A DNA stretch of 62,494 bases, counting the filler, from Stramenopiles sp. TOSAG23-6 (lineage: Eukaryota): NCBI GenBank assembly GCA_900128565.1. It is 14 parts of 14 records of this genome, joined end to end, with 100 filler letters (N's around TTAATTAATTAA, not from the genome) between each part and the next. Parts side by side here need not be neighbours in the genome. Positions count along the whole stretch, not along the records: positions 1 to 4,413 come from LT637177.1; 13 more parts are not named here. The stretch is one strand, 5' to 3'. The notes beneath the pieces were generated by a model. That model did no database searches. It was given only the letters and a program-made list of their open reading frames with translations, and was not told where the DNA came from. Each line of letters begins with the position of its first letter. Within the stretch, counting starts at the first letter, position 1. Shown piece by piece: positions 3,335 to 61,126 of the stretch. The translations under genes and the position numbers were made by a program.

Positions 3335-4190
3335 TCATCTTCTTTTTATTATATGAGTTACTGAATTTTGATGTCTTAATTTTCGTGTATTTGCGAGTTT
3401 AACTCGTTCAAAATTCATTTCTTTTTGCTCTTTATTGGAACGTTCCTGCTCCTCCACTCTTTTAAAAAGCGTACTTTGTAAACTATACGGAGCACGAACA
3501 GGTCTGTCCTTTCCAGATAACAATCTTTGTCTTGCTTCACGAATGGCACGAATCCATATATTTTGAAAAAATATTTTTTTTTTTGGTAAAATTCGTTAGG
3601 TATGAAATTTTCGTACGAAATTTTCAAAAAAAAAAAAAAATTCGAAATTGAAAAAAAAATCCAGAGCAAAAAAAAAAAAATTTTTTTGTTAGGTATGAAA
3701 TTTCATAGTTAAAAAAAAATGTAGAATAAACATTGAAAAAAAAACCTACATCGTCTTTTTTCAGGTGCTGTTTTGCACACAACTGTAAATGTTTTACTTG
3801 GATGATCAATTTGGAACGCTTGCACAAACCTGTTAGAATTACGCCCTGATCGTTTTTCGTGTTGAATTTCTAAATTTTTAATGACTTTCACTCGAATATC
3901 AATTAAATTTAAAATTCGATGTACACGAAATCTTGATGAAAACCAACCTTTTTTTGCATAAAGTACAACATCACTAAATAAAAAAAAATTATATTTTTGG
4001 TACAAATTTTTTGTACTTATTTTCATTAAAACACCTTCTAATAAAAGTTGTCTATTTTTTTTTAAAATTTTTGCAGATTTTTTAAATTTTTTTTGTAATT
4101 CTTCAAGTTTGACTTTTTCATATTTTGTTTGAATTAATTCTTTTAAATTGGCCACTATTTGATGAACATGTAGTGCGAAGATATATATAT
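3335..4190 (-). CDS. C-terminal part of a DH-PH (RhoGEF, FGD-like) protein, 5' partial
   Basis: RQLLLEGVLMKIS...FFLFSDVVLYAK...AFQIDHPSKTFTVVCKTAPEKRR|WIRAIREA is a PH domain after a DH-like helix; exons ~4190-3750 and 3555-3335. Confidence 0.75.
3556..3749 (-). other. Intron, GT-AT, two branch boxes
   Basis: GTAGGTTT...CAAAATATAT; removal creates the invariant PH-domain Trp codon (t|gg). Confidence 0.85.
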
Positions 4191-13635: not shown

Positions 13636-16600
13636 ATAATTGCACCTCGACAAGCTTTTGAAGCAATGACACGACTTACACATTTAGTTTGAAAAAATAT
13701 TTCAACAAAAAAATCTATAATATTTTGTTAGGTACAAAATTTCGTACGAAAAAAAATTCAAATTTTCAAAAAAATAAATGTACAGGGCGGTCTTTTTTTA
13801 TACAAATGTTGTTCATAAAAATTCAATTTTTTTTGATTTTTTGAATTTTTTGAATTTTTTGAATTTTTTTGATTTTTTTCAGTAGGGTTAGGGATAATAT
13901 TAGCATTAGATGCTAATGAAAAAGATGATTCAAGAGCATGACAATATTCAATTAAATCAGCTGAATTAAAAGTATATCCAAGTAAACTTGGAACTTTTTG
14001 TATATGCAATCTTTTTTGGATTATTTCGTGTTTTTTGATTGTTTTGATATTTTTTTCGTGTTTTTCTATTTCATCTTTTTCTATATTTTCATTATCTACC
14101 TTTATATTATCCAATGCGACTGAAATACTTGTTATTGTATACACAAAATTCCATGTAGAGATAATATCTTTATATTGTAACAAAAGTTTTTCATCTATTT
14201 CAGAAATATTTACAATTTGATAAGGTATGATTTTTTTTGTAGATAATAAACTCTTTATATTTTTTTCAAAACGTTCATAACGAACTCTTTCCTATAATGT
14301 GAATATATTACTTTATCATTATTGAAATTTGTTATGAAAAGAATATTGAAAAAAAAATTTAAAAAAAATTTAAAAAAAATTTAAAAAAAAATTTCAAAAA
14401 AAAAAAAAATTTTAAATTTAAAAAAAAAAATTTAAAAAAAAAAAAAAAAATTTTAAAAATTAAAAATTGAAACGTACATGAGCTGCGTGTTGGTCAATAC
14501 ATAAAAGAATATCATTATGTAAAAGTACCATCAAAAATTTACAACTTATACATCCTATATATCTTGCATTGTGTAACATTTCTTTTGTAATAATTATTTT
14601 TGATTTTGTTGACAACTCTCTGAATTTATTCAATTTATCTTTTTTTTTTTTTTTTTTTTCAATTTTTGTGTGTGACGTCATAATTTTCTGCTCTTTTATT
14701 TTTCCAAATAAATGAATATTCGGATTTTTTGGATTCCATACATCCATCGGAAGTTTTTTGTACTTTATTTTTGGTATACAGTTTAATTTTTTTTTAGGTC
14801 TTTCTTTTTCTATTATATCAACTACTGTTGTATCTGTGGATAAACCAGGCCAATTTATAAAATGTTGTTGTTGTTGTTGTTGTTGATTATGTAAATATGG
14901 TTGTTGTTGTTGTTGTTGATTATGTAAATATGGTTGTTGTTGTTGTTGTTGTTGATTTTGTTGATTATGTAAATATGGTTGTTGTTGTAAATATGGTTGT
15001 TGTTGTTGTTGATTATGTAAATATGGTTGTTGTTGTTGTTGATTTTGTTGATTATGTAAATATGGTTGTTGTTGTTGTTGTTGATATTTGAAATCATTCC
15101 TAATTACAGTTGTTGGTTGAATACTAGTTACACGTTCAACGTTTTGACATTTATCATAAAAATCTTCATTGATATTAGTAATATAATCTTTAGTAGTACT
15201 ATTATTAGTAATATAATCTTTAGTAGTACTATTATTACTAATATAATCTTTTGTAGTACTATTATTACTAATATAATCTTTAGTAGTACTATTATTACTA
15301 ATATAATCTTTTGTAGAAGTAGTAATTTGCTGAAAAAAATGATGCACAAAATTATTGATTGCTTTTTCACAATAACTATAATCTAAAAATTGAATTTTTG
15401 TTTTTGTGGCATCAAATAAAATATCGTACATATTATTATCACATTCAATGTACACAATTACTAATGGCAAATGTATATTATATTGTTTTAATGCTGAAGT
15501 TCCACGTTTTGCAATATCTTTGGATTTCGTGTTTTGAAATAGTTTTGAATTTTGTGTATTTTTTACATTTTTTACATTTTTTACATTTTTTATATTTTTT
15601 ATATTTTGTGGAAAATAATAATTAAAAGCATTGTTAAATGATTTTATGATGTTGTAGTGTTTTTGTAAGATTCGTTTGTTAAGAAAAAAATATTGTAGTT
15701 GTTGTGAATGTTTTGGAAATCGTTTTAAAGTAATAAAACCAGAAATTCGAAATTCAGTATTTTTTATATGTTTNGTGTTTTTTGCATTTGAATTCAATTT
15801 TGGTACAAATGTTGTATATGAAATATATTGAAATTCTTTAACTTTGCATAAACCAAAAAATTGACCATATCTACGCAAGATGACGTCACATCCACCATAG
15901 TGCAAATATTTTGGAAAAATATTTAAAAAAAAAATTCAAAAAAATTGTTAGGTACAAAATTTCGTATGAAAAAAAAAACTTTAGTTTTTTTGTTAAAAAA
16001 TAAAATAAAACATACAAATATTTTGGAATATATTCATTATTATGTTTTGATTGTTTTGATTGTTTTGATTGTTTTGATTGTTTTGATTGTTTCTGTCCTT
16101 CAGTCACACGAAATATTCGTTTTGTGGTGGTACGACGAAACCCTAACCCTAATTTTGAATCACTTTGTAGAGATGATTCAAAAAGTGAAAAACCAATCCA
16201 TGGTGTTACTAATGCAATTGTCTGTAGTAGTCTTTTAATACGTTGTACTTCAGCTTTTACATTGATACGCTTTCGACGAACAGGAAATTTTGCAAAGAGT
16301 TGATGACACGTAATTTTTGTTCCACATTTGACAAATTGTTCGAATTGACAATTTTCCAGACTTTTTTGTGATATTTGATAGTTTGAGAGTGTATGAAATG
16401 ATTGTGTCGATCCATCGAATATCTTGACAAGAGGTTCACAACCTTGTTTACTTGATTTTGTTACAATAACTACTGAATTGGATATTGATATAATTGACGC
16501 TAAAGCTTCACCACGAAAACCATATGTCTTGATAGTGTCGAGATCCGAGAGAGATTCTAACTTTGATGTGGCATGAAACGTTCCGATTGCATCTAGATTA

Positions 16601-26790: not shown

Positions 26791-27291
26791 GTACGTTTCA
26801 TTTTTTTTTCAATTTCGAATTTTTTTTTCGTACGAAATTTTGTACCTAACGAAANNNNNNNNNNNNNNNNNNNNNNNNNNNNNNNNNNNNNNNNNNNNTT
26901 AATTAATTAANNNNNNNNNNNNNNNNNNNNNNNNNNNNNNNNNNNNNNNNNNNNCACAGCAATGAAATTTCTTCATTGGTTCATTACTTCCATATTTATA
27001 TCAATGTTGTTTTATTTTATAACCGCTCTCCACGAAATCTGTAAAAAAATCGAAATGTCGAAAATATTGTACTTGAAATAATCAAATCGAAATCAAATCG
27101 ATCAAAATTTTCTTTTCTTTTCACATTTACTATACACTTGACTAAAGTTTGACTTAGTTTAAAATTAAAAATCCAATTGATTGTTAAATATTGATTGTGA
27201 CTGAATGATATCATCATGCTTCCTATGATATATTTCCCAACTGATTGATATATAGAAGCATTTCTCTTTGATTAAGATTCCTTTAAAAACA

Positions 27292-29443
27292 ATGGAGGAT
27301 GGACATCGGAAAGGATTTGGAGGAAAAACGATTGGAAATATAGGTTCCTTTATTTATTTAGTGAACCAGATTTTCGGGCCTGGTGTCCTTGCTCTTCCTT
27401 ACGTTGTTATACAGAGTGGATTCATCCCATCGTTATTGATGAATGTATTCATGTGTATGGCTTCGGCGTTATCTTCAACAATGCTAATGGGTGCAATACG
27501 TGCAATTCCTCAAAATAGACATCTTCAACAAAGATTAGGATTTTTTAGTGCAATTCGTTTTTACTATGGTACAAAAGTCGCAACAGTGTTTCAATTTTTT
27601 CTTCATTTAACGTTACAATCGTTAAATATTGCTTCAATCATCGATGTGGCTTGTGCATTTGATAAGTTACTACTAAAACTAGTTGGTAAAACACCAGCAT
27701 TAGAAGTTTCACCTCACTTTCATTTTGGATTATTTGATCTTAATTGGGTGAGTTCAGTTTATGGCTCAGATCAATCTACAATAACATTTGCATTAACTTT
27801 AGGGTATTGTATTGTTGGTTTGTTATGTATACCAATGGGAATGTTTAATATTGATGATAACATCATTGTACAAATTGTCTCTTTTATATTTTTAGTCATT
27901 CTCATTGGTATTTTTGTACTTCAATGTATTATTGATGGATTTCGTGCAGATCATTTTGACAATAATGATGAAGATTTCGTATTTCCTTCTTTTTTTGGTT
28001 CAGAGTATCGAGGATTAATGGCAGTCTATATATTTTCATACAGTTATACAATGCTAATTCCTCCATGTAACTATATATTTTTTACATTTATTTGAATTTT
28101 TTTTTTTCAAAATGAATTTTTGTTTCGTACGAAATTTTGTACCTAACAAAATATTTGAAATTTTTGAAATATTTTTTTTATATTTCATGGGCAAATGAAG
28201 CGAAACGAAACGTTAATATTGGAAAACAAATTTGGTTATCTGCTTTAACATCATGCATTGGTTATTTGATTGTTGGTATGTAATTCAATAATATATTTTG
28301 AATTTGAATTTTTTTTGAATTTTTTTTTTGAATTTGAATTTTTTTTCATACCTAACAAAATTTTAACTTTGATTTGTTAGACTTTTACATGGACTCTACT
28401 CGCTTGTGCATATCCAAATATTACAACAGATAATGTTCTTCTCAGTATATTAAACAGTAAATATTCTAATTGTGTGTTTATATTTTAAATATCATTTTTT
28501 TTTTAAATACAAAANTNTATACCNAANAAAAAAAAANTCATTTTTTTTTNATATATTTTTCAAAAATATATTAATTACAAGAATTGCTGCATATGCATTT
28601 GCTGCCACAATTATATTACCAGGTATCCCTGTGTTTTGTATAACAACTCGGTATGATTTACAAATGAGTGGAATATGTTCGTATGTACGTTTTTTCGTAC
28701 TATTTTTTTATTTTTTTGAAATTTTATTTTTCGTACGAAATTTCATACCTAACAAAAAAAAATATTTTTTTTATGAAATATTTTTCAACATGTAGAGACA
28801 AAGTATTTTTTTTGGAAACATTGCTCCATGGTTAATTGCTTGGTGTTTATCATCTGCTACTGCTTTTTCATCCATGTTGGTATGGACAAGTTTGGTATGT
28901 GGATCTGTAGTGAATTACATTGTACCTTTATTTTTATACAGAACATCAATTTTAAAAGCCAAAGAAAACCCTAACCCTAGTACTATGAACCCTAACCCTA
29001 GTATAAATGATGATAGAATAAGTCCTAACCCTAGTTCAAATGATGATGAAGAAGAAGTAAAAGAACAACAACAAATTCGAAATTCATTAGGTATGAAATG
29101 TAGAATAAATTCAATTTCAAATTTATCTGTACTTGAGTCACCACTAATTGAAAACTTTTATAATCAATACAATGATGAAAGAAAAATGAATGAAATAAAT
29201 ACTATAGACATGAACCCTAACCCTAATCAACAATCCTCGTATAATGGCTTTTATAATGAAGAAGAAAATTTATTGAATATAGACATGAACCCTAACCCTA
29301 ATCAACAAAACCCTAACCTTAATCAACAATGGACTGTTTACCCTAAATGTGTTCAAAAATACGAAATGTATATAACAAATTGTATATTAGTGTTGATTCT
29401 GATTTCAGTCATTACTTGTATCACTATACAAATTTTTAAATAA
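27292..29443 (+). CDS. Amino-acid transporter (Aa_trans/AAAP family), five exons
   Basis: LVNQIFGPGVLALPYVVIQSGF and multiple TM segments; introns 28067-28188 (AT), 28276-28390 (AT), 28472-28571 (AT) and 28685-28795 (AG) give one open frame. Confidence 0.85.
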
Positions 29444-29808
29444 AGTTGAAATGAGTTGAAATGTCCAAAACAATTTCGAGAGTAAATGACAATCTATATT
29501 GAAGTTGAATACTATATATGATATATATGTATATATATGTATATAATAATAATACAATTAATTTGAATCATCTTTTTATTTTATTTCTTCACAAAACCAA
29601 ATAAATCACTTTTTTGTTGTTCAATTCAAAACACAAAAATACAAAATAATGACAAGCCCATTTGACTTGGACTAAATATTTTCATTGTACCATTTCTCAC
29701 CATGACTCCAAAATATTCTTGTGCATATCGATCAATGTAGACCAATCTACTTCACTTGTATATTCTTTTCGAAACAAACCAAATGTATTCTATACCTGAT
29801 TTTGTTAG

Positions 29809-30370
29809 TTAAACACTTTTACGATCTGTCATGACACGAAGTATAGAACCAACACCGACTTTTGTGTTTAATAATGAATGCCACCTAAATAGTGTTGAAG
29901 CGCGTTTTGGATCTTCTAAACCTTTGTAAATATATTTCATAAGTACATCATAGTATTCTGGTGAAAGTTTATTGATACATGACTTAATTTTATCGTCTCT
30001 ACATCCGTATAAAACTTTATAAACACATTCTGCGTTAGCTTCCTATAATGTAAATGAAAATGTCAAAGTGTCAAAAATGAAGGAATAAGTTCAAAAGTAT
30101 GTACAACTATACGATTCAAGTATATTATAAAAACACAGTATCAAAGGGTATAAACGGGATGTTGAATTCTGATGAGTGAAAATACTTGTAAAAGATGATA
30201 TGATGTTGTACTTTTGAAGAACTTACCTTGACTTCTTTGTTTTTACTACCCAATGGTGGGTTCTCCAAAGATTTAGAAAGAGCTTGCAAGAAATTATTTT
30301 GACTTAGTAAATCTTCCACTTCTGATTTTTTTATGCGAATGCTATCTAGAAAAGCAGCATCATTTGACAT
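29809..30370 (-). CDS. ARPC5: Arp2/3 complex subunit 5 (p16-Arc)
   Basis: ALSKSLENPPLGSKNKEVK|EAN...DVLMKYIYKGL...LFRWHSLL...GVGSILRVMTDRKSV; canonical intron 30043-30226 (GTAAGT...TAG). Confidence 0.92.
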
Positions 30371-30725
30371 TATTATACTCCTAACACTTCTTCTTATTGT
30401 TTACGATGCCTTGGCTATACTTAACACAATTTGTCACTTTGACTATTATTACTATCAGATTTTATTACGCAAGCAGAATGATGATGATTGAAATGAAGAA
30501 AATGGTTTTGGGAAAATTTTATGGGTCAGAAAAGGTACCAGGTAACGGTATCAAATTTCGAATTAATTCATCGATATTATTTTATTGATTTTTTTATCTA
30601 ATTTCTCAAATTTAATCAAATATGTGTTATTATTTTTGTTTGTATATGAAATGTTTCACCCTTTTATAAACAACAGGGAAACATTTTAGTACAATAATAA
30701 ACAGATAATAATAAGAAAAATAAAT

Positions 30726-31323
30726 TTAAAAATATTTTTCAAGCATTGCTTGTGCATACTTATTACTGGCATTAGCAGCTTTGGTATACCACTTTTTAGC
30801 TTCTTTTTTGTCTACAGCAACACCATGACCAAATTGATAGCAATAACCAAGATTATTTTGTCCACTGCTATGACCTGCATTAGCGGATTTAGTATACCAC
30901 TTGAAAGCTTCTTTTTTGTCTTCAGCAACACCAATACCATATTCATAACAATAACCAAGATTACTTTGTCCACCACTATTACCTGCATTAGCGGATTTAG
31001 TATACCACTTGAAAGCTTCTTTTTTGTCTTGAGCAACACCACGACCATGTTGATAGCAATAACCAATATAATTTTGTGAAATACTATCATCACTATTATC
31101 CATAAACATCTTAAATGCTTTTTCCTCATCCTTTTTATAACCATTCCAACCACTAAGTGTACAAAATGCAATAGCTGTTGGAAAACCAGCAATAGCCACA
31201 GATTCAATCATTAGTCGTCCATTCTCTTTATCAATAGTCTGAAAGTCATTACCATAAAACTTCGCATAACCAAGTTCAAATAAATTCTGTGCACCTTTAT
31301 TTTCTATCTTTTGACGTTTTACT
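30726..31323 (-). CDS. Sel1-like repeat protein, 5' partial
   Basis: Three 36-aa repeats QxNLGYCYxxGxGVAxDKKEAFKWYTKSANAG. Confidence 0.9.
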
Positions 31324-31760
31324 NNNNNNNNNNNNNNNNNNNNNNNNNNNNNNNNNNNNNNNNNNNNTTAATTAATTAANNNNNNNNNNNNNNNNNNNNN
31401 NNNNNNNNNNNNNNNNNNNNNNNCACAGCAATGAAATTTCTTCATTGGTTCATTACTTCCATATTTATATCAATGTTGTTTTATTTTATAACCGCTCTCC
31501 ACGAAATCTGTAAAAAAATCGAAATGTCGAAAATATTGTACTTGAAATAATCAAATCGAAATCAAATCGATCAAAATTTTCTTTTCTTTTCACATTTACT
31601 ATACACTTGACTAAAGTTTGACTTAGTTTAAAATTAAAAATCCAATTGATTGTTAAATATTGATTGTGACTGAATGATATCATCATGCTTCCTATGATAT
31701 ATTTCCCAACTGATTGATATATAGAAGCATTTCTCTTTGATTAAGATTCCTTTAAAAACA

Positions 31761-33912
31761 ATGGAGGATGGACATCGGAAAGGATTTGGAGGAAAAACGA
31801 TTGGAAATATAGGTTCCTTTATTTATTTAGTGAACCAGATTTTCGGGCCTGGTGTCCTTGCTCTTCCTTACGTTGTTATACAGAGTGGATTCATCCCATC
31901 GTTATTGATGAATGTATTCATGTGTATGGCTTCGGCGTTATCTTCAACAATGCTAATGGGTGCAATACGTGCAATTCCTCAAAATAGACATCTTCAACAA
32001 AGATTAGGATTTTTTAGTGCAATTCGTTTTTACTATGGTACAAAAGTCGCAACAGTGTTTCAATTTTTTCTTCATTTAACGTTACAATCGTTAAATATTG
32101 CTTCAATCATCGATGTGGCTTGTGCATTTGATAAGTTACTACTAAAACTAGTTGGTAAAACACCAGCATTAGAAGTTTCACCTCACTTTCATTTTGGATT
32201 ATTTGATCTTAATTGGGTGAGTTCAGTTTATGGCTCAGATCAATCTACAATAACATTTGCATTAACTTTAGGGTATTGTATTGTTGGTTTGTTATGTATA
32301 CCAATGGGAATGTTTAATATTGATGATAACATCATTGTACAAATTGTCTCTTTTATATTTTTAGTCATTCTCATTGGTATTTTTGTACTTCAATGTATTA
32401 TTGATGGATTTCGTGCAGATCATTTTGACAATAATGATGAAGATTTCGTATTTCCTTCTTTTTTTGGTTCAGAGTATCGAGGATTAATGGCAGTCTATAT
32501 ATTTTCATACAGTTATACAATGCTAATTCCTCCATGTAACTATATATTTTTTACATTTATTTGAATTTTTTTTTTTCAAAATGAATTTTTGTTTCGTACG
32601 AAATTTTGTACCTAACAAAATATTTGAAATTTTTGAAATATTTTTTTTATATTTCATGGGCAAATGAAGCGAAACGAAACGTTAATATTGGAAAACAAAT
32701 TTGGTTATCTGCTTTAACATCATGCATTGGTTATTTGATTGTTGGTATGTAATTCAATAATATATTTTGAATTTGAATTTTTTTTGAATTTTTTTTTTGA
32801 ATTTGAATTTTTTTTCATACCTAACAAAATTTTAACTTTGATTTGTTAGACTTTTACATGGACTCTACTCGCTTGTGCATATCCAAATATTACAACAGAT
32901 AATGTTCTTCTCAGTATATTAAACAGTAAATATTCTAATTGTGTGTTTATATTTTAAATATCATTTTTTTTTTAAATACAAAANTNTATACCNAANAAAA
33001 AAAAANTCATTTTTTTTTNATATATTTTTCAAAAATATATTAATTACAAGAATTGCTGCATATGCATTTGCTGCCACAATTATATTACCAGGTATCCCTG
33101 TGTTTTGTATAACAACTCGGTATGATTTACAAATGAGTGGAATATGTTCGTATGTACGTTTTTTCGTACTATTTTTTTATTTTTTTGAAATTTTATTTTT
33201 CGTACGAAATTTCATACCTAACAAAAAAAAATATTTTTTTTATGAAATATTTTTCAACATGTAGAGACAAAGTATTTTTTTTGGAAACATTGCTCCATGG
33301 TTAATTGCTTGGTGTTTATCATCTGCTACTGCTTTTTCATCCATGTTGGTATGGACAAGTTTGGTATGTGGATCTGTAGTGAATTACATTGTACCTTTAT
33401 TTTTATACAGAACATCAATTTTAAAAGCCAAAGAAAACCCTAACCCTAGTACTATGAACCCTAACCCTAGTATAAATGATGATAGAATAAGTCCTAACCC
33501 TAGTTCAAATGATGATGAAGAAGAAGTAAAAGAACAACAACAAATTCGAAATTCATTAGGTATGAAATGTAGAATAAATTCAATTTCAAATTTATCTGTA
33601 CTTGAGTCACCACTAATTGAAAACTTTTATAATCAATACAATGATGAAAGAAAAATGAATGAAATAAATACTATAGACATGAACCCTAACCCTAATCAAC
33701 AATCCTCGTATAATGGCTTTTATAATGAAGAAGAAAATTTATTGAATATAGACATGAACCCTAACCCTAATCAACAAAACCCTAACCTTAATCAACAATG
33801 GACTGTTTACCCTAAATGTGTTCAAAAATACGAAATGTATATAACAAATTGTATATTAGTGTTGATTCTGATTTCAGTCATTACTTGTATCACTATACAA
33901 ATTTTTAAATAA
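31761..33912 (+). CDS. Amino-acid transporter (duplicate copy)
   Basis: Identical to 27292-29443. Confidence 0.8.
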
Positions 33913-34277
33913 AGTTGAAATGAGTTGAAATGTCCAAAACAATTTCGAGAGTAAATGACAATCTATATTGAAGTTGAATACTATATATGATATATATGTA
34001 TATATATGTATATAATAATAATACAATTAATTTGAATCATCTTTTTATTTTATTTCTTCACAAAACCAAATAAATCACTTTTTTGTTGTTCAATTCAAAA
34101 CACAAAAATACAAAATAATGACAAGCCCATTTGACTTGGACTAAATATTTTCATTGTACCATTTCTCACCATGACTCCAAAATATTCTTGTGCATATCGA
34201 TCAATGTAGACCAATCTACTTCACTTGTATATTCTTTTCGAAACAAACCAAATGTATTCTATACCTGATTTTGTTAG

Positions 34278-34839
34278 TTAAACACTTTTACGATCTGTCA
34301 TGACACGAAGTATAGAACCAACACCGACTTTTGTGTTTAATAATGAATGCCACCTAAATAGTGTTGAAGCGCGTTTTGGATCTTCTAAACCTTTGTAAAT
34401 ATATTTCATAAGTACATCATAGTATTCTGGTGAAAGTTTATTGATACATGACTTAATTTTATCGTCTCTACATCCGTATAAAACTTTATAAACACATTCT
34501 GCGTTAGCTTCCTATAATGTAAATGAAAATGTCAAAGTGTCAAAAATGAAGGAATAAGTTCAAAAGTATGTACAACTATACGATTCAAGTATATTATAAA
34601 AACACAGTATCAAAGGGTATAAACGGGATGTTGAATTCTGATGAGTGAAAATACTTGTAAAAGATGATATGATGTTGTACTTTTGAAGAACTTACCTTGA
34701 CTTCTTTGTTTTTACTACCCAATGGTGGGTTCTCCAAAGATTTAGAAAGAGCTTGCAAGAAATTATTTTGACTTAGTAAATCTTCCACTTCTGATTTTTT
34801 TATGCGAATGCTATCTAGAAAAGCAGCATCATTTGACAT
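34278..34839 (-). CDS. ARPC5: Arp2/3 complex subunit 5 (duplicate copy)
   Basis: Identical to 29809-30370. Confidence 0.88.
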
Positions 34840-35194
34840 TATTATACTCCTAACACTTCTTCTTATTGTTTACGATGCCTTGGCTATACTTAACACAATT
34901 TGTCACTTTGACTATTATTACTATCAGATTTTATTACGCAAGCAGAATGATGATGATTGAAATGAAGAAAATGGTTTTGGGAAAATTTTATGGGTCAGAA
35001 AAGGTACCAGGTAACGGTATCAAATTTCGAATTAATTCATCGATATTATTTTATTGATTTTTTTATCTAATTTCTCAAATTTAATCAAATATGTGTTATT
35101 ATTTTTGTTTGTATATGAAATGTTTCACCCTTTTATAAACAACAGGGAAACATTTTAGTACAATAATAAACAGATAATAATAAGAAAAATAAAT

Positions 35195-35792
35195 TTAAAA
35201 ATATTTTTCAAGCATTGCTTGTGCATACTTATTACTGGCATTAGCAGCTTTGGTATACCACTTTTTAGCTTCTTTTTTGTCTACAGCAACACCATGACCA
35301 AATTGATAGCAATAACCAAGATTATTTTGTCCACTGCTATGACCTGCATTAGCGGATTTAGTATACCACTTGAAAGCTTCTTTTTTGTCTTCAGCAACAC
35401 CAATACCATATTCATAACAATAACCAAGATTACTTTGTCCACCACTATTACCTGCATTAGCGGATTTAGTATACCACTTGAAAGCTTCTTTTTTGTCTTG
35501 AGCAACACCACGACCATGTTGATAGCAATAACCAATATAATTTTGTGAAATACTATCATCACTATTATCCATAAACATCTTAAATGCTTTTTCCTCATCC
35601 TTTTTATAACCATTCCAACCACTAAGTGTACAAAATGCAATAGCTGTTGGAAAACCAGCAATAGCCACAGATTCAATCATTAGTCGTCCATTCTCTTTAT
35701 CAATAGTCTGAAAGTCATTACCATAAAACTTCGCATAACCAAGTTCAAATAAATTCTGTGCACCTTTATTTTCTATCTTTTGACGTTTTACT
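35195..35792 (-). CDS. Sel1-like repeat protein (duplicate copy)
   Basis: Identical to 30726-31323. Confidence 0.85.
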
Positions 35793-35944
35793 NNNNNNNN
35801 NNNNNNNNNNNNNNNNNNNNNNNNNNNNNNNNNNNNTTAATTAATTAANNNNNNNNNNNNNNNNNNNNNNNNNNNNNNNNNNNNNNNNNNNNTACGAAAT
35901 TTTGTACCTAACGATTTTTTTTGAAATATTTTTCCAAAATACAT

Positions 35945-36087: not shown

Positions 36088-36848
36088 AAAAAAAAAATTG
36101 TAGTCGTGTAAAACTTTCAAATTTAATTAGACATTTGCTTTGATTGTTCAATAAAAAAAAATATTTTGTAGTCGTGTAAAACTTTCAAATTTAATTAGAC
36201 ATTTAATTAAAATTGGAAATAAAATCAAAGCTGTGTACGAGGCTAAGGATGATTTATAGAGGGTACAGAAAGAAAAATATTATTTTCAATATGTACCTTC
36301 AAAGTCAAACGCATGAATATTTTTTCACATTAAATTGATATAATGTCAGTGGTCTTCTTAGATTGGCCAAGTGTATCAAAATAAAATGTTCTTAAAAAGG
36401 ACCAATAATATGTAAAAATTGTTAGGTACGAAATTTTGTACCAAACCCGTATACGCTTGACCTTTACGTAAAAAAATTGTTAAAAAATTCGTCGAAAAGT
36501 GTATGACATTGTCCCTTTGGTTCGAATCCCGCTTTGGTTACAAATACAAAATAAGTTAGAACATACTTATAGTAGTACCCAACATTAAGGCACGAAAGCC
36601 CTAACCCTAATAACCCTATTTAGATTTCCAANATTGAATTTTTGAAGCGTTTGAAAGTGTTAAAACGTTACTTGTAGATTATACGTTAATATTAAACGTA
36701 AAAATGTTTTTTAACACCCAGCGGTAAATTACATCTATTAGTAGCTAGTAGTAGTAAACTTGAGTAGCATTTAACATCCTCCATCTGAAGCCTAAAAACA
36801 CAAGGGAGGAAGGTAAAAGTTGTGTTCTTCTCCACTTAAATTGGGAGA

Positions 36849-43271: not shown

Positions 43272-44724
43272 ATGACATCCCACATGTCAAAGGCTGTAAG
43301 ATCAGCTACTGACTCAGAAATATTCGATCTTGGTGGTTATAACGAAGATACTATACACTTGCTAGTTGATCAGTGTTTCAAAGAGCCTTTTCCAATCTCT
43401 ACAATGATCAAAATAAGTTTCATTGTAGGCGCTGGAAAAGCTACACGCGGTAGATACAATAGTTCATTACCAAAGTATATGCGTGCAGCTCTCCAGAAAG
43501 TCGGATTTTCTGAAGATCAAGGAGCATGCTGTATGGATACCAGTGCAGGTTTGTTCAAATATCAACATGATACTGGAAAGAACCAAATTTTTATCCATGT
43601 ATTCCCACTTCTGAAAGTTGCGGATGGGTCGTTTCCACCAGTACCTCCTCAAGCTGAAGAAATAAAGGATCCTCTAACAATGTGTTGTGAATGTAGTTTT
43701 TCTACTTTTAAGAAAATAGTGGAGAAACAAACTCCTTCGGTTACAACTAAACGTCGTCTACATGCATGTTTTATTTATTTTTTTGTTTTCGAAAAAAAAA
43801 AATCGATTTTTTTTTCGTACGAAATTTTGTACCTAACAATTTTTTTTTTTTGGTAAAAAAATTTTGAAATATTTTTCCAAAATACATGCTGCTTTAAAAG
43901 ACGCCAAGAAAGAATTTACTTCTATTGAAAAGAAGTTAATGAATGGTGAGACACTTTCAATCAAAGAATCAGAGAAATATTCTAATTTTGAAGACATAGA
44001 AGATAAAATAGAGTATGTACGTTTTCAAAATTGGATTTTTTTTGAATTTTTTTTTTTTGAAAATTTTGTACCTAACAATTTTTTTTTTTTTTGGTAAAAA
44101 AAAAATTTTGAAATATTTTTCCAAAATAAATGTTCATTCTCTGCAAATCGCTCAAGTAAAGCGTGGTGAAATTACTGCGGAAGAAAAAAATATATTGAGG
44201 TCCAATCTTTTTTCAAAGATAAAAACTTTAGAGATGGAAATAAAAAAATGTGAAGAAAATGCATCAGAAAATGTAAGCAAACCAAATCTAGCTGCAAAAT
44301 ATAACAAACATGTAGAAAAGTTACAGAAAGACAGAACGTTTTATTTATTTTTTTGTTTTTTTTGTTTTCGAAAAAAAAAAAATCGAATTTATTTTTCATA
44401 CGAAATTTTGTACCTAACGAATTTTTTTTTATAGAAAATTTTGAAATATTTTTCCAAAATAGGCAACAAACTGAATATTCGTATGAATTCTCTCAAAGAT
44501 AAACCAACAAAAGACGTTTTGACAATTTTCCCTTTAAAAAATAAAGAAGAATTTGAGTCAATTTGGCTTCAGGCTGATCGAATAAAATCATGTACGTTTT
44601 ATTTTTTTTTTTTTTTCGAAAAAAAAAAAAAAATCGAATTTTTTTTTCATACGAAATTTTGTACCTAAAAAATTTTTTTTTTTTTTTTTTTTGAAATATT
44701 TTTCCAAAATACATATCTATTTTC
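43272..44724 (+). CDS. Uncharacterised protein with four motif-class introns, 3' partial
   Basis: Introns 43764-43887 (GC-AT), 44017-44131 (GT-AT), 44334-44462 (GA-AG) and 44592-44714 (GT-AT); the first three joins give a continuous frame. Confidence 0.75.
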
Positions 44725-49394: not shown

Positions 49395-52300
49395 CGATCT
49401 CCATTGTGTTATGCTTGTCAAAGAGGAAATGAAGATATCGTACGTTTTTTGTTATCACAGGGAGCTAATATTCATCATTGTGATGATACATTACAAATGC
49501 CTCTAGGGTATTCAACATCTTTGAATATTATATCTTATTTACTGTCTAACTTGTTTGAAAAGAACAAATTCGAAAAAAACAAATTGGAAAAAAACAAGTT
49601 TGAAACCAATGAAAACAACAAGTTTGAAACCAATGAAACAAACGGTATATCAATTCGTCCAATTCAAAATAATCCAACACAAAATCATATTGATAATCCT
49701 ATTTTGTTAAATAATACTGAAAAACAACAATTAAAGAAATATTTGAATCATTTAAATCAAGATAATAAATCAGCTTTAACATTTGCTTGTCAAAATGGAA
49801 ATCTAAAAGTAATTAAATATTTATTAGAAAAAGGTCTTGATGCTACAATTCTTGATACAAACAAAAAAACATTGTTGATGCATGTTCCACAATGTCAAAA
49901 TCAAATTCAAATTTTTCAATGCTTATTTGAAGCAGGTATGTTTTTTTTTTTTTTTTACAGAAAAATCGAATTTATATTTTTTTTTTTATAAAAAATTTGT
50001 ACCTAACGGGTTTTTTTTTGAAATATTTTTCCAAAACACAGGCACAAATGTAAATGCGAGAGATAGCACAGGTAAAACTATAATGCATTATGTAGCTGCA
50101 CAGACCAATGGAGCAAACCTGATGAAGTTAATAACCTCTTCATTTGAAACAATGATGTCCGTTTTCAATTTCGAATTTCAAATTTCAAATTTATTTTTTT
50201 TTATTTTTTTTTTTTGGTTTTTCAAATTTATTTTTTTTTATTTTTTTTTTTTTGGTTTTTGGTTTTTGGTTTTCATACGAAATTTCGTACCTAACATTTT
50301 TTTTTTATAGAAAATTTTAAAATATTCTTTCATAATATATTGATGCTATTGATGAAACCAAGCGAACACCTTTAAGTTATGTATCTAATTCAGATAGTGC
50401 ATCTCATTTGCTTCAAATAGGATCAAATGTAGATATTGAAGATATTCAAAAAAGAACGGTGTTAAGTTATATATGTGAAGCAGCAAGAGACCCTAACCCT
50501 AACCATAACCAAAATTATAAGAGAATATTACAATTATTATTTTCTTGTGGTGCTGATTTCTCAGGAGGTCATGCTAAACGCAATGCAATAACATTTGCAT
50601 CAAAACCTAATATATTAAAACAATTTGTGAAATCTGGTGCAAATGTTTTTTCCACTGATTCGCATGGGCGAAATATTTTGCATTATTTTGCTTGGAAATG
50701 TTCTCAAAACCCTAATTCTTGTTGTAATGAATTGACGACAAGTTGGAATTCTGAGGATAAAAAATGGGTTTTGAACCCTAACCCTAATCCTAGTTCAACT
50801 ATAAAAAGTCATACATTGATACAATCTACATCTTCAGACTTTTCTAATGATATTGAAATTGCTAAAGTACTCCAAGTGAACATGGAAAAAGCAAAGGCAA
50901 TTCATATAACTGCAGAATCCGTCCGAGCAAATGCTGCGGTTCATTGTGTGCTCCAACAGACGTATAGAATAGCAAAAGCAGAAGAAAAACGATTTCAAAA
51001 ATATGCTGATATTAAAGTTACACTTGAATTGGCTGCAAGGCAACGATGGAACAAAGCACAATATGGAATACCTGCAGAAACTCTTGTCACAATAAATAAT
51101 GAATTATTAAAGTCTAAAATAAATGAAACTGCTGCAAGAGTACAGTATAATTTAATGGCTGCAGGAAAACATGATGCAACAGCATTGACAAAGTTATCCA
51201 AACATGTATAATTTCATCATGAATTTATTAATTTATTTTTTTATACGAAATTTCGTACCTAACTATTTTTTTTTTTGTAATTTTTTTTTTTTTTTTTTTT
51301 TACCAAATTTTGGACCCAAACTTTTTTTTTTTTTTTTTTAAACATGTCGCATCTATGGTCGATACATACCAACAGACTGTGCGTAGATGTACGTTTTCAA
51401 TTTTGATTTTTTTTTTAAACTTTTGAAATTTTTTTTTGTATGAAATTTTGTACCTAACCAAAAAAAAACCCAAAAAAAAAACTAAAAAAAAAATTTTTTT
51501 TTTTTCAAAATATTGTTCAAAAATGTATGGTTTGTTGCTCATGGCATTTTATCCGATGACAAGGTGAAACAATTAGGTAGACAACTTTCTGAACAGAAAG
51601 ATGTTTTACAGTCTCAAGAAAGATCTTTACAATCATATTTGGATAAATTGCAAATTGCAATGGAAAAGAAAGCAACAATACAAAAAATACAAAAACAATC
51701 TAAATCAAAATATTCAAAATATTCAAAATATTCAAATTCAGATAAAACAGACAGTTTTTTGAAAGACGAAAAAAACATTGAAAACAATGAAAACAATGAA
51801 AAAGAAATCAAACAACTTGAAGATAAAAAGAGAGAAGTATCTAATGAAGTCGAGGTATGTTTTTGTTTCAATCTTTTTTTTTTTTCAATCTTTTTTCGAT
51901 TTCAAATTTGCTTCATTTTTACATAGTAAATTTTGTACCTAACAATTTAAAAAAAAAAAAAAAAATGAAAAAAATATTGTTTTGTAATATAGGTAGCACG
52001 CCAAATAGTACACAAATTACAAGAAACATATACAAAAGCATTAAATGCAAAAAACCTTTCAAATGCTTATATAAAGATAAGAGATAATAAAGTTGCCCAA
52101 GAAAAAATATATAAACAATTACAAAATGTGTTGGGTGTAATACCTACAGAAGAAAAGAAACAATTGAAAACAAAATGGATGTATGTTTTAATTTTTTTTT
52201 TTGAGACTTAAAAAAAAATCGATTTTTTTTTTATAAAAATTTTGTACCTAACAATTTTTTTTTGAAAATATTTTCCAAAAATATATGAATATTCAATTTG

Positions 52301-53546
52301 TACTTGCTGAAGCGATGCATTCCGTTGTGAAATCAAAAGCCAAAACTAAACAAGCGTATATAAAAATGAAAAATGCATGGAAACAATGTCAAGATGCACA
52401 TATTGAATATGGAATGGCTTGTTTGTTTTATATATTTTTTTATATATTTTTATATATTTTTATATTTTTTATATATTTTTTTATATTTTTTTTTTTTTTT
52501 CATAGTAAATTTCATACCTAACAAAAAAAAAATAAAATATATTTTTCACAAAACATGTTTGACAAAAGAATCTCGTGATAATCTACTTAAATATCGTACC
52601 ATGAAAGAATTTGAATCAGATTCAAATCCAGGAAAATATTTTGGCATTTTAGGAACATTACAAACAAGTTTTGGGCTTGGTATTGATGTGAATAGTGTAG
52701 ATAGAAAAGGTCGTTCAATATTGCATTACATTATTGGCGTGTACAACCCTAACCCTAACACTACTATACACACAAAAAACAAAAAAAACAAAAAAAACAA
52801 AAAAAACAAAAAAAACAAAATACAAAATTCAAATTCAAACATACATATAAATATTGTAGATTCAGGTATATTACACGTTATACAAAAGCAACAGAGATTG
52901 GCTTTACAATTAGCCTTATCCATGGGAGCAAATATTGACATTTGTGATTGTGAAGGACGTTCGACGTTAAGCTATGCATGTATCTTTTAATTTTTTTTTT
53001 AAATTTTTTGTCTACATTTTTTCATAGTAAATTTTATACCTAACAATTTTTTTTTTTACTAACCAAAAAAAAAAAAATTTTGAAATATTTTTCCAAAATA
53101 CATGTGAATATGAAAATCATCAAGCCATTGAACTTCTTTTGTTTGCTGGAGCAAATGTACATTGTACAGATAATTCAAATAGAGATCCAATTACGTAGGT
53201 TTTTTTTTTTTTTTTGTAAAACTTGTTAGGTACAAAATTTCGTACGAAACCAAAAAAAAAAAATATATTTTTTTTTTTAATTTTTTTTCTTACATTTTTT
53301 TTTATAGTAAATTTCATACCTAACAATTTTTTTTTATAGTAAATTTTTAAATATTTTTTCACAATATATATATGCTTGTAGTTTAAAAAGTCTTTTACTT
53401 TTATTAGACGCCGATGCATCGCCAAATAGTAAAATCAATGCAGAAAATGTAACTATATTAATGGAAGCATCTAAGAATGGTTCAGTTTTAATTGCCAAAG
53501 CTCTGTTAGCAAAGGGTGGTTCAATTTTGGTACGAGATGTTGATAT
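49395..53546 (+). CDS. Large ankyrin-repeat/coiled-coil protein, partial, ten exons
   Basis: Introns 49936-50041 (AG), 50157-50340 (AT), 51206-51345 (AT), 51389-51528 (AT), 51855-51992 (AG), 52181-52286 (AT), 52421-52556 (AT), 52980-53103 (AT) and 53195-53369 (AT) give a continuous frame with intact ankyrin repeats. Confidence 0.85.
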
Positions 53547-53564
53547 GTTTGTTTTTTTCATCCA

Positions 53565-53617
<53 letters not shown>

Positions 53618-53989
53618 NNNNNNNNNNNNNNNNNNNNNNNNNNNNNNNNNNNNNNNNNNNNTTAATTAATTAANNNNNNNNNNNNNNNNNNNNNNNNNNN
53701 NNNNNNNNNNNNNNNNNATATCTGATATAATTGTATTTGTACCATTTTTTTATACTTGAAAAATTTGTACAACTTTTTTTTTTTTTTTCTTTTTTTAAAT
53801 GTGTACTTTTTTTTTTATACTTGAAATGTTCTATGAAAAAAAATCTCAAAAAATACAATTGTATATATATACATTATATATATACATTATATATATACAT
53901 TATCTCCAGAGATAATTACTACAATACAATAATATATTGTATTTTTTTTTTATATTTTTTATATTTTTCATATAATTTTACTTTTGACA

Positions 53990-54350
53990 TATTATTCACA
54001 TTTTAAAAAAGTTATTATTGGGCATGTACGTTTTTTTTTTCATACGAAATTTTGTACCTAACAAAAAAAATGACCAATTTTGAAATTTTGAAATTTTGAA
54101 ATTTTGATTTTTTTTTTTTTGGTTTCATACGAAATTTTGTACCTAAGAAAAAAAAATTAACCAATTTTGAATTTAATTTTTTTTCACAATATATCGAGGT
54201 GCAGTNAATGCATGCGCATTTTTACCTGAAGGGGATAGTTGTATTTCTGTTGGAAATGATAAATCATTACGCATTTGGAGCACATTACCAAATGATATTG
54301 ATGAGAGTTATGCAACTGATAGTGAATATGAATATTATACTGATGATTAA
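53990..54350 (+). CDS. Last WD40 repeat of a WD40 protein, 5' partial
   Basis: IIGH|RGAVNACAFLPEGDSCISVGNDKSLRIWS after removing GT-AT intron 54026-54194. Confidence 0.75.
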
Positions 54351-54388
54351 ATGGATAAAAAAAATATTATGGTTATATTATATATATA

Positions 54389-54439
<51 letters not shown>

Positions 54440-54522
54440 AAATTTTTTCAAAAATTTCAAAAAAAATTTTTTTTTTTGAAAAAATTAAAAAAATAGGAAA
54501 AAAAGGTTTCATGAAAAAATAC

Positions 54523-56332
54523 ATCTTTTGTGTTTGATAGAAGCATTGCCGTATTATGAAGACGTTGAACAGCTTCAAGTAACCAAGCATTCATATCACT
54601 AGGTACATAGGATGCAGCAAAATTTTGTAATGCAGCAATAGCATCAGTATAATCTCTTGATATTTCTTTTGTTTTTTCAAATAAATTTTCATTATTTTTT
54701 TTTTCAAATTTTTTTTCAAAATGTTTTGTTTTTTTTGTTTTTTTTATTTTTTCATCATCTTGTTCAGTATATTGTTCATCATCTTGTTCATCATCTTGTT
54801 CAGTATATTGTTCATCTATATTTTCATCATCTTGCTGATTATGTTGTACATCACGCACAGTGTCTATGTTTAATGGATGGAATGAACCAACACTTTCTCT
54901 TTCAAGTTGTTTTTCTTTGAAATCAGTCATGANTATATATATTTTGGAAAAATATTTCAAAAAAAAAAAATCTAAAATTTTTTTTGTTAGGTACAAAATG
55001 TCGTATGAAAACCAAAAAAAAAAAAAAAAAAATTTTAAATTTAAATTTAAAAAAAAAAAAAAAAAAAACATACATTTTCAGCAATATTGCTCTGTTTTGA
55101 TATTTTTTCTACTTCAAATGTTTTACTACAAAATCCTGAAAATCCTGAAATAAACTGAGTTGATACTCCAAGTTCTTCCATTGTAAATGATTGTAACCAT
55201 ATCATTTGTTTTTGCCATCGTTTGTCCTCTTTATCAATAATTGATTGATTATAACATTGACATAATTTTTTTATAGGTGCTAAATTATAAATTGCATTTG
55301 AGGCGAGTAATAGTAAACAATTATTTTCTTCTTTTTCCGCCTTTTCACAATATCGTTTTGTTTTTTCAATTTCAGTTGCGAGACACTGAGCTTCAATTTC
55401 TGTAGTTGATGTATTTTGGAAAAATATTTCAAAAAAAATTTTTTACCAAAAAAAAAAAAAATTTGTTAGGTACAAAATTTTCAAAAAAAAAAAATGTAGA
55501 CTAAAAAAACATTGAAAAAAAACAAAAGATACATGTTGGCGAAGTGGATAAAATGGTTGTCAACCGTCTTGAAATACGTGAAGATGTTGTTTCGGATATT
55601 TTAGGTGTTTCGGATGTTTTAGGTGTTTCGGAGGTTTTAGGTGTTTCGGAGGTTTTAAAGGTTTTTAAGGTTTCATTTTCATCTTTTATATTTTTTTGTT
55701 TCATTACTTTTATTTGAGCTTTCGCAACAATACGAGATTTAACTTTAGCTAATCGAAGTTTTTTTGATAGTCTTTTTGTATCATATTGACCAATTTCAAA
55801 ATGTGCAGCTACAGCTTTAGAAAAATATTCAACAAAAGCATGAACTAAACCAGGAGGCAAATAATAATTATTATTATTATTATTATTATTATCATTATTA
55901 TTATTTGTAGTAGTAGTAGTAGTAGTATTTGTAGTAGTAGTATTATTATTATTAGTAGTAGTAGTATTATTATTATTAGTAGTAGTATTATTTGTAGTAG
56001 TATTATTATTATTATTATTAGTAGTAGTAGTAGTATTATTAGTACTAGTAGTAGTATCATAAATATTATTATTATTATTAGTAGTAGTAGTATCATTTAT
56101 AGTATTTTTTTGTTTTTTTCGTTCCTTCAAAACTTCTTCCGTACGTGTTCTAACTCTATTTAACCATCGATACAAAAGTCTTCCTGGTCTGTTTCTCACA
56201 TCTAATGCAATTGAATTAAACATATTTTGTAAAATAAAAGGAATTTTCAAACCCTTTGGTGACTCAAAATTCCACACAGCTCCTTTATCATCATTATCAT
56301 CATTATTATTATTTGTTGTATCATCATTACTA

Positions 56333-56363
<31 letters not shown>

Positions 56364-57969
56364 TATTATCATTATTATTATCATCACTAGTATCATCATC
56401 ATTATTATCATCATTATTATCATCATCAGTATTATCATCATCATTATAACAATAATCACGAAAAACACTTTGTAATCCAATATAATCAAATTGTCCAGAT
56501 TTCGTGACATCATGAATAATACCTAATAAATCGTTTTTTTGTACTTCATAAGATCGTAATCGAGATCGTGATTCAAGTATTGTGAAAAAATATTTCAACA
56601 AAAATTTTAGAAAAAATTGTTAGGTACGAAATTTTTTTACGAAATTTTTTTACGAAAAAAAAAAAAAATTAAATTAGAAATTCATATAAAATTAAATTAG
56701 AAATTCATATAAAACGTACAACCATTGCGATACGTTTTGTTGAACGGTCAAACTCTTTCTGTATTTCGTGTACTTTTTGAACATGTGTAAATATATAATC
56801 ATCTCGGGCTGCTAGCATGTACTGTGAAAAACAATATTTCATTTTTTGATTTTATTTTGTTTTTGTTAGGTACAAAATTTCGTATGAAAAAAAATTTCAC
56901 AAAAAAAAAAAAAATGTTGAAATTTTTGATTTTGTTTTTTTGTTTTCTATGAAAATTTCGTATGAAAAATCAAAAAAAAATATATCGAAAACATACATTT
57001 CCGGAGGAAGAAAAAAATTACCTGCTAATACAGGAATTGCAATTTTTTTCTTATCAATTAAAAAATTAACACAATCTTGTAACTCAAGGCACCATGAATG
57101 TGATGATTGATAATTTGGTGCAGCTAGAAAAAAAGTTTTAGGCCCAGTACGGGATGGGATACCTAATAAAAATATATTTTGTAAAGAATATTTTTTTTTT
57201 CATATTTTTTTGTTAGGTACAAAATTTACTATGAAAAAAAAACTGTAAAAAAAAAAATGTAATTTTTTTTTTTTTTTTTTTTTTACATTTGTTAGGTACA
57301 AAATTTACTATGAAAAAAAAATTTATGAAAAAAAAAAAAAAAAAAAAAATTCATGAAATGACACAGACGCATTTTCAACACTTCCAAATCCCATAGAAAT
57401 GCATTCTTCGGACGTTTTAGGATCCGATACCCATGTTTCACTAGTAAAATCAATAAATCCTCTAGGAGTCAATTTTTCTTCAATCGCACGTTTTTTATAT
57501 ACAGTGATTNGNTCAGTTNTTTTTTTTNGANTTTTTTTTTGAATTTTTTTTCAAAATTTTTTTTGAATTTTTTTTCAAAATTTTTTTTGAATTGTTTTTC
57601 AAATTATTTTTTGAATTATACAGTGAATCTTCATGTGTAATTGTCGTATCCATTGTAGTATTCCATGGTAACTCTGTCTCTTGATAATAATATAAACGAA
57701 ATGCTAGAGGTCGTACAGAATCGGGATAAATTGTAAAGAAATATATTTTTTTTAGTTTTTTAGTTTTTTAGTTTTTTAGTTTTATAGTTAGGTACAAAAT
57801 TTACTATGAAAAAAAAAAAAAAAAATTTGAAATAACAAACATGATATTGTTTCCATTGTAAAGTAGTATTATTTAATCGGACAATTATCGGTGGATATTG
57901 GAGAGGTGCAAATCGGAAGTTACGCCATTTCCATCTTCGTAGAATATCTGAACGTTTTAATAAATTTCC
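54523..57969 (-). CDS. PH domain plus probable VPS9 (Rab5 GEF) domain protein, partial, Asn/Thr/Asp-rich inserts
   Basis: GNLLKRSDILRRWKWRNF...LYYY...PRGFIDF...ENAF...TFFLAA...W (PH); YTDAIAALQNFAASYVPSDM (VPS9-like). Introns 57726-57840, 57174-57368, 56817-56996, 55409-55532 and 54937-55073 (AT) and 56575-56719 (TT); 57500-57620 unresolved because of Ns. Confidence 0.7.
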
Positions 57970-58156
57970 ATGTATTTTTCAAAAATATGTTTCAAAAAAA
58001 AAAATCGTTAGGTACAAAATTTCGTACGAAAAAAAAAAAAAAAAAATAAAAAAAGGNNNNNNNNNNNNNNNNNNNNNNNNNNNNNNNNNNNNNNNNNNNN
58101 TTAATTAATTAANNNNNNNNNNNNNNNNNNNNNNNNNNNNNNNNNNNNNNNNNNNN

Positions 58157-58425
58157 ATTTTTTGTATTTTTTGTATTTTTTGTATTTTTTGTATTTTTTG
58201 TATTTTTTGTAAAATTTGAAAACTGTTTTTTTTTAATATTTTTACGTATATGCCAATTTTTAAATTCATCTAACGCTGATATTATAGCAACCTTGGCCAC
58301 TTCAGGTGGAAACAAACTAAGATCAATTTGTGATTGAGCAGGTTTGTTTTTATCAATGGACCAAGTTTTAAAGTAACCGTCTCTGTGACTTTGGTTATAT
58401 AACTGTAATGCCTTGGCTTGATGAC
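58157..58425 (-). CDS. Exon resembling a PPR/Smr-domain region
   Basis: ALQLYNQSHRDGYF...IDLSLFPPEVAKVAIISAL. Confidence 0.4.
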
Positions 58426-58684
58426 CTTTTGTATTGTAAAAAAATATTTTTTTTTTTTTTTTTTTTTTTTTGGGAAAAATTTTTTTTTTAAAAAAAAATT
58501 AAAAAAAAAAAAAAAAAAATTAATTTTTGTTTAGGTAAAAAATTTCTTATGAAAAAAAAAAATGAAAAAAAAAAAAAAATTTTCAAAAAAAAAAAAATAA
58601 TAATAATTTTTGTTTTCTATGAAAATTTCGTATGAAAAAAAAAAAATGAAAAAAAAAAAAAATTTTAAATAAAGTATGAAAACC

Positions 58685-61005: not shown

Positions 61006-61126
61006 ATGTATCCAATGAGCGTAAAAAAAAAACCAAAAAAAAAAACCCTAACACATTTCAAAAAAAATCGTTAGGTACGAAATTTCGTACGAAAAAATAA
61101 ATTTGAAATTGAAAAAAAATAATTAC
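61006..61126 (-). other. Motif-class intron-like element in apparently non-coding DNA
   Basis: GTAATT...TTTCGTACGAAATTTCGTACCTAAC...GGATACAT. Confidence 0.55.

Follow-up and report, generated by a model that had tools for sequence, protein, structure and literature searches.

The PH-domain gene on the minus strand near the start of the window (the whole stretch analysed here: 62,494 nt from Stramenopiles sp. TOSAG23-6, GCA_900128565.1, a chain of ~4.4-kb contigs from a 21-Mb assembly of 6236 contigs) raises the question of how an intron could be spliced when it closes with AT instead of AG. The initial annotation had read this intron as GT...AT, with splicing creating the invariant tryptophan of the PH domain, and had held more generally that conserved motifs in the proteins back the AT acceptor. 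On the minus strand the junction reads GACGAT/GTAGGTTTT (3749) ... CAAAATATAT (3556)/GGATT (slashes mark splice junctions), which gives PEKRR-W-IRAI (Table 1). A profile search with the upstream exon retrieved 179 proteins at an E value of ≤0.001, and of the 150 listed we hand-picked the 67 whose match reaches at least query residue 140; assuming gap-free extension from the end of each match, 64 of these 67 carry W at the junction column. The best homologue match runs on gap-free across the junction, and a word-based homologue search with the same exon returned no matches. Scored against a PH profile of 48 homologues, the GT...AT product ranked first of 534 at 55.2 bits, 19 bits above the best GT/GC-AG alternative (36.3 bits). 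The first AG at this site (+21) is in frame and would delete WIRAIREA, a helix, so it is excluded by homology only and not by frame. Judged from these alignments, the non-AG junction is real at the protein level, and the tryptophan proposed by the initial annotation holds. Protein alignment fixes the length removed and not the register, since junctions shifted by -2 or -1 give an identical protein; the GT...AT description of this intron thus depends on the register set by U1 and U6 and on other introns that lack a terminal repeat, both considered below.

The same argument had been extended to four further sites, at each of which the first AG after the branch box was said to lie inside conserved coding sequence. 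It carries over well to the WD40 intron, where none of the first three AGs keeps the frame and the following exon matches WD40 profile positions 15-39 from exon residue 5 onward. The MutL-family junction is frame-consistent as proposed, but the first AG after its box sits within the intron (-33) and not in conserved coding sequence; the AG at +7 is out of frame and that at +27 is in frame with the loss of 9 residues. PDB searches with the MutL exons gave no matches, leaving this junction without a homologue alignment. For the ENA/F intron the first three AGs are again out of frame, but nothing supports the PH label: both flanking exons lack a Pfam match, and the product scores 7 bits against the PH profile (rank 93 of 512). 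The first AG at the DGAT2 tail (+29, residue 9) falls after the start of the DAGAT match at residue 6, as claimed, but the junction itself is uncovered because the upstream exon lies off the contig. We note that the introns at 3556-3749, 54026-54194 and 57174-57368 are all of double length with two boxes each, representing internal duplications or nested copies; in the first of these the boxes are 93 nt apart. The intron at 53195-53369 (plus strand) carries at its 5' end the box region once more in inverted orientation and could fold back onto its own box.

Table 1. Features discussed in the text; positions count along the window unless a contig is named
Feature	Position	Strand	Remarks
Focal intron, GT...AT	3556..3749	minus	194 nt, ~2x family length, two boxes
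Focal donor, GAT/GTAGGTTTT	3741..3752	minus	pairs with own U1 at 9/11, with standard U1 at 7.5
First TACCTAAC box of focal intron	3688..3695	minus	duplicate
Second TACCTAAC box of focal intron	3595..3602	minus	branch-site candidate 1 (putative role)
Focal 3' motif, TTTTTTCAAAATAT+AT	3556..3571	minus	A at -9 (3564), branch-site candidate 2 (putative role)
Focal upstream exon	3750..4179	minus	DH-PH (FARP/FGD-like) PH domain, ends EKRR + T
Focal downstream exon	3335..3555	minus	starts GG (completes Trp), last PH helix and stop
WD40 intron GH/RGAV, GT...AT	54026..54194	plus	two boxes
MutL-family intron, exon end CT, GT...AT	13682..13783	minus	frame-consistent, unaligned
Intron ENA/F, GT...AT	57174..57368	minus	frame only, two boxes
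3' half-intron before DAGAT tail, ends AT	35893..35944	plus	5' half off contig
Family intron TT/GT...TT	56575..56719	minus	
Family intron TT/GT...TT, MutL-family gene	15904..16015	minus	
Family intron AG/GT...AG	49936..50041	plus	
Non-family intron AG/GTAAGT...AG, presumably ARPC5-like gene	30043..30226	minus	no box, A at -9
U5, U2, U1, U4 head-to-tail cluster	L001 9-645 (G000:C1146)		genes 2-23 bases apart

These introns belong to a large family. Across 707 kb (the window plus fetched stretches), 152 introns were called from the box TACCTAAS, with the donor taken from intron positions +1 to +9 and the end from positions -16 to -3 only, the last two bases being unused. Enough flanking coding signal for evaluation was available for 134, and in 124 of these the motif-defined end joins the reading frame (chance 1/3, p = 5e-47); the other 10 are out of frame, several of them visibly miscalled. 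In an earlier pass, joining at the first AG beyond the box kept the frame in 38 of 108 introns, which equals chance, and an AG between box and end is skipped in 34 of the 124. The in-frame introns have a median length of 101 nt and end in AT (94), TT (11), GT (7), AG (5), AA (3), AC (2) or CT (2), so that the AT acceptor of the initial annotation is the commonest end without being obligatory (30 of 124 end otherwise) and the AG end of U2-type introns is found in 5 of 124. Throughout the genome TTTYCAMAATAC is followed by AT 3842 times, by TT 282 times and by AG 142 times (reversed controls: 4, 1 and 2), counts that are to be read as ratios and not as copy numbers because the assembly is partly redundant. 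In a sample of 40, family introns are 73% alike in pairwise comparison and 84% alike to their nearest neighbour (shuffled, 60%), and this occurrence of many similar introns at unrelated sites is a feature of introners. The consensus ends GTAY.../...ATAC can pair along no more than 3-4 bases, short of the terminal inverted repeat of at least 6 bases that is present in some introner families only. A search of viral contigs for the element motif gave no matches. Box copies also occur outside recognised coding genes (61070-61077 and 36421-36428 on the minus strand, 60908-60915 on the plus strand) and may mark UTR introns or decayed copies.

Conserved proteins from outside the initial set agree with the motif-placed ends. 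The inserts lie within invariant motifs of urocanase, SNF2, HSP70, gamma-tubulin and arginyl-tRNA synthetase (ArgRS), and their removal restores the frame. The motif-placed junction ranked first among ~600 junctions each at all three urocanase introns (one of them hand-placed) and 2, 5, 148, 1 and 1 at the five ArgRS introns, beating the best GT/GC-AG alternative at 7 of the 8 sites and tying at the eighth. The SNF2 motif ADEM/GLGKT is restored by the motif-placed junction, and its first-AG alternative leads to a stop. At the gamma-tubulin intron and at one in HSP70, the following AG also keeps the frame, so that frame alone cannot exclude AG there; for HSP70 the Pfam match resumes gap-free only with the AT end. 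The focal PH gene, urocanase, ArgRS and SNF2 thus all agree with the general reading that conserved proteins here need non-AG junctions. An AA-ending intron suspected in a WASP gene was dropped, its frame being unconvincing.

The last two bases of the intron tend to repeat the last two bases of the upstream exon, intron by intron. Matches between exon end and intron end exceeded the expectation from shuffling at -2 (107 versus 83.9, p = 0.0002) and at -1 (113 versus 102.4, p = 0.0002), were weak at -3 (p = 0.04) and +2 (p = 0.008), and were absent at +1 (61 versus 60.9). Exon ends other than AT are copied exactly at the intron end in 18 of 37 cases, and 24 of the 124 introns have no exact two-base repeat and are still in frame. 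These counts are made noisier by contigs that are chimeric exactly at intron ends, as in the gamma-tubulin contigs L201 and L202, which are identical over 875 bases up to the intron's last base, after which their exons differ, a chimera through the repeated intron end. A site-specific match between the ends is the criterion of Gozashti et al. for target-site duplication (bioRxiv 10.1101/2022.06.06.494994), and the per-intron match suggests that the two-base repeat is likewise a target-site duplication.

The U1 snRNA has changed in a way that fits the donors of this family. The sole U1 found starts AAACGUACAUGG (Rfam consensus, AUACUUACCUGG) and differs at positions 2, 5 and 9; its full-length match has an E value of 7.5e-12 and a score of 54.1 bits, below the cut-off of 69.5. 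Two matches to it, identical over the snRNA cluster, probably represent one locus. With 41 of 253 candidates scored, a second U1 is possible; no standard U1 was found in a non-exhaustive search, and none of the three sequences identical to the standard 5' end is a U1 gene. The 5' end is the complement of the donor CAT/GTAYGTTT, including the exonic T at -1. In the usual register A9 would face exon -1 (T in 90%) and U10 exon -2 (A in 79%), two positions unused in calling and for which the AT background is 10%; G5 would face +4 (C 40%, T 56%, A 0%), where C and T both pair with G, and the A run would face +6 to +9 (T in 93-100%). By sequence complementarity only, donors pair on average at 9.6 of 11 positions with their own U1 and at 7.0 of 11 with the standard form, and the own U1 has the advantage at all 124 donors, in part by construction, because positions +1 to +9 were used for donor calling. 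An old-style AG/GTAAGT donor would fit either form of U1 about equally well (7 versus 8), and either U1 or the element may have come first.

The rest of the splicing machinery that we recovered is that of the major spliceosome. U1, U2, U4, U5, U6 and Prp8 are all present, together with one U2AF large subunit-like gene and Slu7, and the branch-pairing GUAGUA of U2, loop I of U5 and the ACAGAGA box of U6 are standard. U6 lies on a different contig from the other snRNAs; both snRNA contigs carry the family motif, and the U1-cluster contig a family intron. The U2AF small subunit, SF1, Prp18, U12 and U6atac were not found in this fragmented assembly, in searches without positive controls, and we reject these absences as evidence of loss for that reason and because the L7Ae family, in which about six genes are expected, has 2 matches in the assembly. 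A search for U1-C gave one weak match, and searches for the U1 of relatives in metagenomes gave no match and then a single chance match. In Prp8, 25 of 1125 near-invariant columns are changed, 6 of them in residues 1250-1700, a stretch in which 6 of 31 homologues show more changes than that. Its residues 1339-1343 (P0001, contig L027) read TAGQA, with S and T at two of these columns in 30-31 of 31 homologues (yeast 1323 and 1326, in a loop), and residues 855-856 are CN instead of VD. Prp8 does not stand out as an outlier and counts as a weak lead only.

Near the 3' end of family introns the best-kept bases are a T run and an A at -9, the latter present in 98% of the 124 and better kept than -2 (84%) and -1 (92%). 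Either this A or the A of the box TACCTAAC, a median of 41 nt upstream, may be the branch site. Pairing with U2 is better for the box, but non-family introns have none. In four hand-checked introns lacking a box, A stands at -9 in all four, and three end in AG and one in AT. This non-family signal rests on the hand-checked cases because two blind scans for ordinary GT-AG introns (1 and 21 calls, mostly doubtful, with no -9 A signal) missed introns that had been verified by hand. The AT-ending one, in a cathepsin L gene (TC/GT...AT/C), has no box, no repeat and no register ambiguity; on solved cathepsin L, the exons joined at the AT end abut at residues 32 and 34, and the first AG is out of frame. 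An A so conserved at -9, together with a non-family AT intron, is most simply explained by a ruler, not a dinucleotide, that would set the cut, and the cathepsin L case suggests that the spliceosome, and not just the element, tolerates ends other than AG. A MutL-family intron at 14292-14477 (minus strand) combines a U1-matching donor, AT/GTACGT, with an AG end and no box.

Taking these results together, we think it probable, with real room for doubt, that these are U2-type introns of a mobile introner family with a duplicated AT end, a cut set by position and a matched U1. The element would carry the donor GTAYGTTTT, and its insertion would duplicate two bases. U1, with its three changes, would pair with AT/GTAYGTTTT; copies landing after an exonic AT would be favoured by this pairing, and the duplicated AT would become the intron end, so that the U1 match to the exonic AT would explain why AT closes most introns. 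The 3' cut would fall 8 bases after the nearly invariant A in TTTTYCAMAATAY, irrespective of the identity of the last two bases, and ends in AT, TT, GT, AG, AA, AC and CT would then all occur with intervening AGs skipped. The changed U1, combined with standard U2, U5 and U6 motifs, favours both the GT register and the major spliceosome. Duplication alone does not account for the non-family AT-ending intron without a repeat, and standard pairing of first and last intron bases does not account for the 15 of 124 donors other than GT (109 start with GT, 8 with AT, 4 with GC and 3 with GA). First and last bases do not covary (G-T 107, A-T 7, G-G 5), and the usual terminal base pair thus seems relaxed. 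One GA donor, CA/GAACGTTTT at 44334-44464 (plus strand), belongs to an intron that by frame probably ends at an AG two bases before its motif-placed end.

Some of these observations could also be read as a switch of the acceptor rule itself from AG to AU, with U1, or a changed U2AF small subunit, reading the 3' end, which we regard as unlikely. In the fission-yeast model U1 pairs with the 3' splice site; Reich et al. in 1992 reportedly described such pairing, which counts for this reading, and Seraphin and Kandels-Lewis in 1993 are said to have found none in budding yeast, which counts against it. The same U1 base change that fits T at exon -1 would fit an AU acceptor, the consensus YAT/G(T) is complementary to U1 positions 7-11 (C at -3 in 76%; G at exon +1 in 51% versus 22% background), and the cathepsin L intron requires an AT end with neither box nor repeat. 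Where the two ends differ, AT stands at the intron end in 12 cases and at the exon end in 5, but this asymmetry is not significant (p = 0.14). TT ends, moreover, outnumber AG ends and follow the exon end, and AG ends still work, in 142 family copies and in three of the four hand-checked non-family introns. A bolder proposal, which we likewise regard as unlikely, is that the single U1 change C9 to A moved the exon-junction code from AG/G to AT/G at both ends, through U1 or U1-templated reading of the 3' end, with an 8-base branch ruler and a dispensable first-G/last-G pair. If true, nature would have supplied in this organism a compensatory mutant for the pairing of U1 with the 3' splice site, which is disputed.

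The two-base repeat leaves 100 of the 124 junctions ambiguous in register, and at these neither protein alignment nor ordinary cDNA can decide between GT...AT and AT...AC. The introns might accordingly be placed two bases upstream, as mostly AT...AC (or AT...AT) introns, possibly of a transformed minor-spliceosome class, which we consider improbable. The branch motif of U12 introns resembles the family box, 8 donors start with A, and ArgRS intron 1 (L071, minus strand) reads AC/ATATGT...AC, an AT-AC family intron with AC as the repeated dinucleotide. Against this, the GT register is the one that suits U1 and the standard ACAGAGA box of U6, the shifted 5' ends would be heterogeneous (TT, GT, AG, AA), a shift of -2 creates a stop at the intron at 28685-28795, and U12 and U6atac were not found in the searches described above, which had no positive control. 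At urocanase intron 1 the unshifted form is slightly preferred (132.0 versus 131.2 bits).

Still less probable, in our view, is that nothing has moved, and that strict selection for long splice signals produced the family look as a by-product, with splicing chemistry itself requiring the two-base repeat. It is indeed the signal-like parts (donor, box and 3' motif) that are most conserved, and the -9 A is common to non-family introns, but the similarity spans the whole intron, near-identical copies collapse in assembly, non-family introns have neither box nor repeat, and the 24 family copies lacking an exact repeat remain in frame. That the inserts are unspliced or an assembly artefact is very improbable, for although three seawater metatranscriptome runs showed no RNA junction and the assembly is fragmented, redundant and partly chimeric, the inserts break and on removal restore five conserved proteins, exist in thousands of copies and have a matching U1.

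The three RNA runs hold 5-9% of the words of window positions 52495-62494. At the cathepsin locus, used as test locus, they contain fragments only, many of them 99% alike, none covering or spanning either intron, which speaks neither for nor against splicing; splicing at the AT-ending junctions is a prediction from the DNA. The redundancy of the assembly shows in two adjacent contigs of 4369 bases, at 26955-31323 and 31424-35792, which have the same sequence.

Individual elements of this system have precedents. AT is the commonest 3' end of the non-canonical U2 introns of Fritillaria borealis and F. pellucida (34% and 44%; PMC13326754), and further likenesses are YAY before the donor and at the intron end, use of the major spliceosome and a proposed transposon origin. 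The main Fritillaria classes are, however, AG-AC and AG-AT, with a strictly preserved U1 5' end and duplicated U2AF, whereas the present genome, known from sequence alone, has GT donors in 109 of 124, AT ends in 94 of 124, a changed U1 5' end and one dominant family. Coevolution of U1 with an atypical donor is described for Entamoeba and Mastigamoeba (bioRxiv 10.1101/2022.06.08.495308); the U1 5' end matches the donor there too, Mastigamoeba has the same ACGUAC core, and an extra A extends pairing into intronic U. In those lineages the changes face intron positions, whereas here position 9, facing exon -1, is also affected, and the accessible text reports neither non-AG acceptors nor an introner family. 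Also comparable are Chrysochromulina-type introners, in which the element carries the donor and the acceptor comes from target-site duplication (bioRxiv 10.1101/2022.06.06.494994); repeated short introns, a site-specific end match, an element-borne donor and no clear terminal inverted repeat are shared. That type duplicates 4 bases, whereas here 2 bases are duplicated that supply no AG, and the host U1 is changed. The supplementary family table of that preprint includes marine metagenome genomes and may list this family. Minor (U12) AT-AC introns are similar in their non-AG ends, strong box and occasional A-starting donors, but the family has the donor GTAYGTTTT and no ATATCCTT-type donor (consensus as given in PMC5029451), with U1 complementarity and U12 and U6atac undetected.

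AT ends, a changed U1 and introners thus each have precedents, and what is new is the U1 match to the donor together with a non-family AT-ending intron. GT-AT introns combined with a changed U1 in a marine stramenopile are not the subject of any paper that came up in our literature search, which had most subscription journals and preprint supplements outside its scope. The intron-end AG and the U1 5' end are among the most conserved signals in eukaryotes, and both have moved here, exon -1 from G to T, U1 position 9 from C to A and the intron end from AG to AT. This joint shift points to a splicing machine that appears to have evolved along with a spreading intron family, and the genome offers thousands of natural variants for studying what determines the choice of a 3' end, and whether an invading element leads and the splicing machine adapts, or the other way round. 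Gene finders that force AG misread such genes. The public ArgRS protein (P0122) is 100% identical over the matched part, yet translates intron sequence and skips parts of exons, errors as expected where GT-AG is forced. Its label contains MAST, which makes an uncultured marine stramenopile the probable organism. The first ArgRS exon (L071, minus strand) also has a DUF5522 domain inserted in frame within the N-terminal part of the protein.
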